From Patescibacteria group bacterium (GTDB lineage Bacteria; Patescibacteriota; Patescibacteriia; Patescibacteriales; UBA12465): a stretch of 64,000 bases of DNA. The translations under genes and the position numbers were made by a program. Below, piece after piece: positions 37,703 through 38,542 of this stretch (position 1 is the first letter of the stretch; each line of letters starts with the position of its first letter). The notes under the pieces are model-generated. The model saw only the letters and a list, made by a program, of their open reading frames with translations. It was not told where the DNA came from and ran no database searches. The stretch spans positions 320,576-384,575 of the forward strand of contig JBAZZR010000001.1 of NCBI GenBank assembly GCA_041658665.1, in the 5' to 3' direction.

Positions 37703-38542
37703 ATGCAAAACATTGCTCTACCAAAAAAAATTGAATTTAAAGACGGCACTGAGCCTCATGAAGGCATAATCAGCGTCGAACCACTTTTCCCGGGATACGG
37801 CATGACGCTGGGTAATTCTCTGCGTCGCGTTTTATTATCATCGCTCCCCGGCGCGGCCGTTATTGGCGTTAAGGTTAAAGGCGCGAGCCACGAATTTATG
37901 GCTTTGCCGCATGTTAAAGAGGATGTTTTAGAAATTATTTTAAATTTAAAACAATTACGTCTTAAAGTGTTTACGGAAGAAGAAGTCCGTTTAGAACTAA
38001 AAGTTAAAGGTAAGAAAACGGTCACGGCCGGCGATATCGCCAAAAATTCTTTAGTGGGGATTAAAAATCCTAATTTAGTTATCGCTCATATCACCGATGA
38101 AAGTGGTAGTCTAGAAATTGAAATTGTGGTTAAAGAGGGACGAGGTTATCGGATGGCCGATGGGGGAAAAAAGGAAAATAGAGAAATTGGTTATATTGAA
38201 ATTGACTCTATTTTTTCGCCAGTTATCGTTGTCAGTATTAGCGTAGAAAATACGCGGGTTGGGAAAATGACTAACTGGGATAAATTAATTTTAAAAGTTA
38301 AAACTGACGGTACGATCAGTGCGGCTGACGCTTTTAACGAAGCGGTTAAGATTTTAGTTGATCAATATACTTCTTTCTTATCTTTAAAAAAGGATGAAGA
38401 CGCCCAAGAAACGTCGGGGGCGGAGGAGGGATTCGTTGCCGCTGACTTAGAAGAAATAAATGTCGCTGGTCAAGAAGAAGCGCCTGAAGATAAAAAAGAA
38501 AAGAAAGAAAAGAAAGAAGCTAAGAAAAAAGCCAAAAAATAA
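37703..38542 (+). CDS. rpoA: RNA polymerase alpha subunit, N-terminal domain only plus a low-complexity tail
   Basis: PLFPGYGMTLGNSLRRVLLSSLPGAAV and the rest of the alpha NTD. After about residue 222 there is only a D/E/K-rich tail ending KKEKKEKKEAKKKAKK. ATG at 37703 preferred over TTG at 37679. Confidence 0.9.
   Translation: MQNIALPKKIEFKDGTEPHEGIISVEPLFPGYGMTLGNSLRRVLLSSLPGAAVIGVKVKGASHEFMALPHVKEDVLEIILNLKQLRLKVFTEEEVRLELKVKGKKTVTAGDIAKNSLVGIKNPNLVIAHITDESGSLEIEIVVKEGRGYRMADGGKKENREIGYIEIDSIFSPVIVVSISVENTRVGKMTNWDKLILKVKTDGTISAADAFNEAVKILVDQYTSFLSLKKDEDAQETSGAEEGFVAADLEEINVAGQEEAPEDKKEKKEKKEAKKKAKK

Follow-up and report, generated by a model that had tools for sequence, protein, structure and literature searches.

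The C-terminal domain (CTD) of the α subunit of bacterial RNA polymerase (RNAP) underlies UP-element recognition and class I/II activation. An Escherichia coli α subunit truncated to residues 1–235 was reportedly engineered by Igarashi and Ishihama in 1991 (work cited in PMC10243135). With α cut at approximately residue 235, assembly and basal transcription are retained, whereas UP-element and class I activation are lost (PMC8321222), and Bacillus subtilis cells with a truncated α (RpoA-del) grow for some hours and form no colonies (PMC4495994). Natural loss of the domain has been described for the endosymbionts Hodgkinia and Tremblaya and for the rpoA of Euglena plastids, and the same source mentions "Parcubacteria" in a single sentence without data (PMC8321222); the word "polymerase" does not occur in the main text of Nelson & Stegen 2015, the work cited there for the Parcubacteria loss. 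A 2025 study describes the α-CTD as "ubiquitously present across all Bacteria" and reports that full-length CRP/FNR-type regulators are absent from the candidate phyla radiation (CPR) (PMC12531629). The present work concerns rpoA, the gene for the α subunit, in a stretch of 64,000 nucleotides from a Patescibacteria group bacterium (positions 320,576 to 384,575 of contig JBAZZR010000001.1; hereafter the window, to which coordinates refer unless another contig is named), whose product lacks the CTD and ends in a charged tail.

In domain content the window RpoA resembles the engineered truncations of E. coli and B. subtilis, all consisting of the N-terminal domain (NTD) only. Truncation is deleterious in those organisms, whereas in the lineage of the window it is the natural state and is accompanied by a conserved basic tip at the end of the tail. 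The lineage shares with Hodgkinia, Tremblaya and the Euglena plastid the natural loss of the α-CTD in a reduced genome. Bare absence of the CTD is not new, because "Parcubacteria" are already mentioned in this context (PMC8321222).

Basic disordered elements that contact upstream DNA are known from other RNAP-bound proteins. Myxococcus CarD has a disordered C-terminal domain, "an acidic segment followed by" AT-hooks, which binds the AT-rich minor groove upstream of the promoter and maximizes promoter activity, and for which other basic disordered domains can substitute (PMC4374960). By analogy, CarD would be the closest mechanistic precedent for the tail described here, as both place a disordered acidic segment and then a basic element on an RNAP-bound module. 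CarD is, however, an accessory factor on β with four AT-hooks in ~140 residues, whereas the tail of the window RpoA belongs to the core α subunit itself, has far fewer residues and lacks an RGRP core. In Actinobacteria, the C-terminal AT-hook of WhiB7 sits in the AT-rich minor groove beside the −35 element (PMC10243135). Like the tip of the window RpoA it is short, basic and C-terminal, and it is linked to RNAP via σ region 4; its carrier, however, is a different protein, which acts as a regulated activator and is not a core subunit. In the literature we found no description of a conserved acidic-plus-KKxKK tail or of its apparently repeated replacement of the CTD, none of AT-hook or histone H1-like termini on a core RNAP subunit, and nothing relevant on RNAP structures of CPR/Patescibacteria or on α subunits with AT-hooks.

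The Window RpoA Consists of an NTD and a Charged Tail

The rpoA coding sequence (37703..38542, forward strand) was taken from the list of open reading frames (ORFs) and their translations and specifies 279 residues followed by a TAA stop codon, a naturally CTD-less α subunit. Along its entire length the protein shows 100% identity to a database entry named DNA-directed RNA polymerase subunit alpha (P0001). It scores 251.6 bits against TIGR02027 (cut-off 227.8), and the NCBIfam rpoA match has E = 1e-80. Pfam places PF01000 at residues 56–172 (E = 5.7e-29) and PF01193 at residues 26–221 (E = 1.7e-21); the other matches at E ≤ 10 are PF13656, a second dimerization-domain model, and a weak match to PF14632 (SPT6_acidic, E = 1.6). 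The NTD, which is the platform for dimerization and β/β′ assembly, spans residues 1–228 (37703..38386, forward strand) and includes the conserved LGNSLRRVLLSS motif. It is orthologous to the NTDs of E. coli, B. subtilis and Thermus thermophilus RpoA, with ~40–47% identity by eye, and shares with them the R44/R45-type LGNSLRR motif and the rpsD-rpoA-rplQ operon position; E-values against solved bacterial α subunits range from 1e-45 to 1e-55. What distinguishes the window RpoA from these proteins is the absence of the helix-hairpin-helix CTD (PF03118), in place of which stands a charged tail of 50 residues that is predicted to be disordered.

The boundary between the two parts was placed by alignment to solved structures. 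With phmmer, residues ~7–233 of the window RpoA align to residues ~11–236 of E. coli α, and 59 further solved α subunits (60 in total) give equivalent NTD-only alignments, none of which reaches the CTD. These limits indicate that the NTD ends exactly at the start of the E. coli interdomain linker. The NCBIfam rpoA equivalogs are likewise matched only at model positions ~1–231 of 298–338, and most of them fall below the full-length cut-off for this reason. Archaeal and eukaryotic Rpo3/Rpb3 (subunit D) are α-like assembly subunits that also lack an α-CTD; the archaeal subunit D model NF001988, however, gives only 29 bits with the window RpoA against a cut-off of 153 (E = 6e-7). In the AlphaFold2 model, built from a 54-sequence alignment, the predicted local distance difference test (pLDDT) score is mostly 70–93 in the NTD, the last NTD helix comprises residues 207–236, and no secondary structure follows residue 236. 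The pLDDT values of 27–38 for residues 229–279 suggest that the tail is intrinsically disordered. The preliminary description of this gene had recognized an α NTD with no helix-hairpin-helix CTD behind it; the Pfam assignments and the alignments to solved α subunits agree with the first point, and the searches described below and the structure prediction, which contains no CTD fold, agree with the second.

No second rpoA is present within the 64-kb window. The one detectable α subunit of this genome is an intact NTD plus a tail of ~50 residues with predicted disorder, and the conservation of the NTD, together with the fact that this is the only rpoA seen, suggests that the protein assembles into α2ββ′ and supports transcription.

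Search for a CTD at the Locus and as a Separate Gene

PF03118 (RNA_pol_A_CTD) has no match in the window RpoA even at E ≤ 10, and neither has a hidden Markov model (HMM) that we built from 88 CTDs, of which many belong to CPR-type α subunits. With this 88-sequence profile, an hmmsearch in six frames across 558 kb, comprising the window together with 80 related loci, gave a best E-value of 0.89. When the CTDs of E. coli, B. subtilis and Thermus were searched against the window by tblastn, only chance-level matches were obtained; those at 33578–33685 (E = 0.14) and 43232–43450 (E = 5.7) lie in alanyl-tRNA synthetase and in the membrane protein ComEC, respectively, and are not CTDs. The downstream gene rplQ, encoding L17 (38566..38916, forward strand, ORF list), starts 23 nucleotides past the rpoA stop codon, so that a CTD could not fit in between, whatever the frame. 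The distance from the rpoA stop to the rplQ start has the same median, 23 nucleotides, in 78 related genomes and lies between 2 and 61 nucleotides in 76 of them, and the long gaps of two loci (474 nucleotides in L079 and 115 in L049) contain no CTD relic detectable by HMM. Without PF03118 in α, the polymerase would have no UP-element reader and no target for class I activators.

A CTD encoded elsewhere was sought by searching a CPR-type CTD profile against 5.8 billion proteins, which returned only short PF03118-only ORFs as stand-alone candidates. The three of these on long contigs sit directly between an NTD ORF and rplQ and were rejected, since this position marks them as pieces of ordinary rpoA genes that have been broken or split rather than as relocated CTDs. 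The remaining ones, on contigs of a few kilobases or less (most under 3 kb), are probably gene fragments.

Two contigs of the ENA assembly ERZ1286166 (L086 and L087) have rpoA and many ribosomal-protein genes chopped into short ORFs. This fragmentation is typical of an indel-rich assembly, and such assemblies are the source of "stand-alone CTD" proteins in the databases. A different case is found on an otherwise intact 8.9-kb contig (L088, 3350–4342), where an in-frame TAA lies inside the last NTD helix of rpoA and an ATG 9 nucleotides past it opens a CTD-carrying ORF; this could be a split gene, a pseudogene, recoding or an error.

CTD Absence as a Trait of the Lineage

The 120 protein clusters nearest to the window RpoA (72–90% identical, 269–288 residues; from NCBI, JGI, ENA and Logan) contain PF03118 in none of 120 cases, and our CTD HMM gives the same result (0/120). 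A GTDB scan with one genome per species returned 80 loci, in 78 of which rpoA could be delimited; its product is 249–300 residues long in all 78, with a median of 273. The absence of the CTD is therefore a trait of the Falkowbacteria-like lineage, which belongs to the Parcubacteria group of NCBI.

Records titled "uncultured Gammaproteobacteria bacterium" (TPA_asm metagenome-assembled genomes; L001, L004–L007 and many others) hold rpoA loci of the Falkowbacteria type. These loci are 70–88% identical to the window, and the titles appear to be mislabeled.

Anatomy of the Tail

The last 57 residues of the window RpoA, TSFLSLKKDEDAQETSGAEEGFVAADLEEINVAGQEEAPEDKKEKKEKKEAKKKAKK, contain 16 Asp/Glu and 13 Lys, and 11 of the 13 lysines fall within the last 18 residues (hypergeometric P = 1e-5), matching the acidic stretch and lysine run that had been noted there at the outset. 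Two parts can be distinguished. The acidic spacer (residues 231–263, DEDAQETSGAEEGFVAADLEEINVAGQEEAPED; 38393..38491, forward strand) is variable in sequence and predicted to be disordered, and its net negative charge is conserved. The lysine-rich tip (residues 264–279, KKEKKEKKEAKKKAKK; 38492..38539, forward strand) ends in KKxKK-COOH and is a candidate DNA-contact element. Compared with described histone H1-like domains, this 16-residue tip is much shorter, and its 11 lysines are accompanied by 3 glutamates.

Across 79 members of the clade the tails cannot be aligned, but their architecture is constant: the NTD end, ...ILVDQ[YF]S.[LF]L, is followed by a spacer rich in Glu, Ala and Val and then by the lysine tip. 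The median net charge is −9 for the tail without its last 15 residues and +6 for the last 10 residues, and in 73 of the 79 tails the charges are more segregated than in shuffled versions of the same residues (p ≤ 0.05). When the tails of the 79 species are aligned at the C terminus, lysine occupies position −1 in 95%, −2 in 90%, −4 in 95% and −5 in 82%, with a small variable residue at position −3. Of the 79 species loci, 59 have the complete KKxKK-COOH motif, as do 112 of the 120 clusters nearest to the window RpoA. The lysine codons of the tip are AAA in 69–73% of cases compared with 65% in the NTD, and the synonymous AAG is used freely. This near agreement with the NTD indicates that the constraint acts on the amino acid and not on a run of A. 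The lysine tip is also kept where the gap to rplQ is 50–60 nucleotides. Given the codon usage and these longer gaps, a nucleotide-level cause of the tip, such as an A-run or the translation context of rplQ, was not adopted as the main explanation. Among the proteins of the window, at least 7 Lys/Arg in the last 12 residues occur only in RpoA and L2, and a strongly acidic segment is combined with a strongly basic one only in RpoA and S11.

Tails and CTDs in Other Relatives

For a wider sample, 1.84 billion 50%-identity clusters were searched exhaustively with HMMER, and the 150 best representatives were retained. A CTD is present in 84 of them, and ~32 are genuine CTD-less α subunits with low-complexity tails. 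Another ~25 that appeared CTD-less were excluded by eye as frameshifted, chimeric or truncated ordinary α subunits, recognizable by NFEEP or TDLS linkers, and the rest comprise six NTD fragments and three tandem-NTD fusions. On the contigs that were checked the CTD-less ends are genuine, with rplQ abutting or overlapping rpoA.

Several types of tail occur among the CTD-less proteins. One is the acidic segment followed by a lysine tip, as in the window RpoA. Another is an all-basic, H1-like tail (P0130, P0155, P0159, P0177, P0207, P0217, P0221 and P0235), and the all-basic tails of some relatives are 40–60 residues long. A third type ends in a canonical AT-hook and is found in P0121, P0129, P0133 and P0134, whose ends include ...KKQKRGRPKKN, ...KKSKKRGRPKKTE, ...KPKKRGRPKKQD and ...EKKKRGRPKKTE. 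P0401 and the proteins of L049 and L079 likewise end in an AT-hook, KK(K/Q)(K)RGRPKK (KKRGRPKK), and in all seven proteins the motif lies 1–3 residues from the C terminus. RGRP is missing from all 84 CTD-bearing representatives and from all 120 clusters nearest to the window RpoA. Among the best 150 representatives, the 50%-identity cluster nearest to the window RpoA is P0121, and its AT-hook end indicates that a KKxKK tip and an AT-hook tip can replace each other between close relatives.

In a neighbor-joining tree of the NTDs, the CTD-less proteins form two main groups, one of 12 members including the window RpoA and the other of ~11. Scattered CTD-less singletons stand beside CTD-bearing sisters, and the tree requires 13 Fitch parsimony changes. 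As judged from these sequences, this pattern suggests that the CTD was lost more than once among Patescibacteria. One of the singletons, P0159, has CTD-bearing nearest relatives, the named ones being Doudnabacteria, Saccharibacteria and CPR2; since these keep the CTD, its loss is not CPR-wide. Four CTD-bearing CPR α subunits (P0166, P0144, P0186 and P0158) have long linkers before the CTD that are lysine-rich or acidic and then KKVKKVTKK. An interdomain linker that expanded is the probable source of the tail, and these four proteins look like intermediates toward the CTD-less form, which makes such an origin plausible.

Two of the CTD-less lineages whose tails are all-basic show an overlap of 35–50 nucleotides between the called rplQ and the lysine-rich 3′ end of rpoA (L082, 2746–2795; L083, 2827–2861).

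Proposed Role of the Tail

Because the tail begins at the position of the E. coli linker start, it would leave the polymerase at the same point. The two tails of the α dimer would thus exit where the normal linker does, at about E. coli residue 236. With ~50 disordered residues each would have a root-mean-square reach of roughly 50–60 Å and a contour length of ~180 Å, so that the tips would come to lie near DNA upstream of the −35 element. A tip of the KKxKK, H1-like or AT-hook kind could make weak contacts, electrostatic with the backbone or in the minor groove, that would be largely sequence-nonspecific or AT-preferring, and the α-CTD too reads the minor groove of A/T tracts. The acidic spacer may hold the chain in an extended state and moderate nonspecific binding, similar to what is seen in the acidic and basic disordered domains of the HMGA/CarD type. 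In this manner the tip would supply part of the promoter anchoring otherwise provided by UP-element contacts without a folded domain, whereas class I activation through α-CTD surfaces would be absent. The loss of the CTD docking surface fits the lack of full-length CRP/FNR regulators reported for CPR (PMC12531629). By analogy with CarD and WhiB7, we regard it as quite possible, without leaning firmly toward it, that the tip makes a tethered, weakly specific minor-groove contact with upstream promoter DNA. It is a more tentative proposal that the folded CTD may have been replaced, more than once across much of the Parcubacteria-group radiation, by a minimal disordered reader of the AT-rich minor groove. 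The different upstream promoter contact put forward in the preliminary description is plausible in view of the conserved KKxKK, the AT-hooks of relatives and the CarD and WhiB7 precedents, but a tail that is left over from the linker would also fit.

Several observations weigh against a DNA-contacting tip as the replacement of the CTD. The window tail contains KKxKK but no GRP and hence no RGRP core. Nor is a basic tip universal, since among the CTD-less relatives there are a few whose tail is purely acidic (P0128, P0131, P0137 and P0141) and one in which the order of the segments is reversed (P0125). S11 in the window also has an extension that is acidic and then lysine-rich, and such low-complexity segments arise easily in a genome of ~40% GC. 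The multiple losses are read from a simple neighbor-joining tree with long branches, and the search for a separate CTD covered 64 kb of a genome of ~822 kb.

The last point bears on the possibility that α is split and its CTD encoded by a gene of its own at another place in the genome. The window makes up only 7.8% of its 821,845-bp contig and PF03118-only ORFs are present in public data, but six-frame searches found no CTD in the window or the 80 related loci. A split gene, which the preliminary description had named as a way in which the apparent loss could be overturned, can thereby be excluded at the rpoA locus, throughout the 64-kb window and across related loci amounting to ~494 kb, and for the genome as a whole we consider it very improbable. 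It had also been pointed out that a sequencing or assembly error might be responsible. A frameshift or deletion near 38370–38540 could in principle have removed the CTD, as A-rich lysine runs invite indel errors and some public assemblies do hold frameshift-broken rpoA genes. With the start of rplQ so close behind the stop codon and a CTD in no frame, and with the same architecture recurring in the independent genomes of 78 species and in 120 protein clusters drawn from four data sources, a frameshift there can be dismissed and the chance of any such artifact is negligible.

More weight attaches to the view that the tail is a drifting leftover of the linker without a DNA function, the CTD having been dispensed with in a regulator-poor, reduced genome. 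RNAP would then use σ–DNA contacts only, and the lysine end would have no role or a generic one, such as in solubility or in the mRNA or translation context of rplQ. The unconserved sequence of the spacer, the purely acidic or very short tails of some relatives, the similar acidic and lysine-rich extension on S11 and the proximity of the tip to the rplQ start (23 nucleotides) would all suit a leftover, and endosymbionts and Euglena plastids lost the CTD without a known replacement (PMC8321222). Drift does not readily account, however, for lysines at −1, −2 and −4 that persist in 90–95% of 79 species behind a freely variable stretch of ~35 residues, for NTD-like lysine codons that speak against a pure A-run constraint, for the persistence of the tip at the longer rplQ gaps, or for RGRP, which several lineages have at this very terminus and CTD-bearing α subunits never have; we think a functionless remnant rather unlikely. 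The conserved tip might instead serve another partner, binding nascent or ribosomal RNA, an acidic protein or its own spacer, with a role in coupling, localization or autoinhibition. The terminal KKxKK-COOH resembles a short linear motif, and intramolecular contacts are presumably common in polyampholyte tails. Against such a role, there is no identifiable partner, the tail is attached where the DNA-binding CTD would be, and in close relatives the tip is replaced by AT-hooks, which are characterized minor-groove DNA binders (PMC4374960). A partner other than DNA appears to us less probable still than a mere remnant, and contact with upstream DNA is the explanation we prefer.

The α-CTD is treated as a universal part of bacterial RNAP, and here an abundant environmental lineage lives without it. 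The domain is thus dispensable in nature beyond organelles and obligate endosymbionts, and the conserved lysine or AT-hook terminus at its attachment point offers a testable idea of how upstream DNA may be anchored in regulator-poor, reduced genomes. If a disordered reader of this kind has indeed replaced the CTD, this would be a distinct and previously undescribed bacterial solution to UP-element-type promoter anchoring, with transcription initiation proceeding without any α-CTD-dependent activation. In practical terms, full-length rpoA profiles fall under their cut-offs in this lineage, and promoter models for CPR assume UP elements.

Neighboring Genes and Further Observations

The canonical gene order around rpoA is intact, with rpsM (35954), rpsK (36415), rpsD (37028), rpoA, rplQ (38566), rplM and rpsI in succession, and the order rpsM-rpsK-rpsD-rpoA-rplQ, with genes labeled by Pfam, is also found on related contigs. 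The upstream neighbor rpsD, encoding S4, occupies 37028..37657 on the forward strand (ORF list). Each of the three tandem-NTD fusions of the wider sample, P0122 (569 residues), P0123 (526 residues) and P0136 (664 residues), has two NTD copies per chain. The two copies in P0122 are identical and probably result from an assembly artifact; those in P0123 and P0136 have diverged, and these proteins may be real single-chain α dimers. Two ribosomal proteins of the window have N-terminal extensions. That of S11 (rpsK, 36415–36996, forward strand) comprises ~70 residues and is acidic and then lysine-rich like the RpoA tail, and that of S9 (rpsI, 39283–39804, forward strand) comprises ~45 residues rich in Lys, Glu and Ala that precede the conserved domain.

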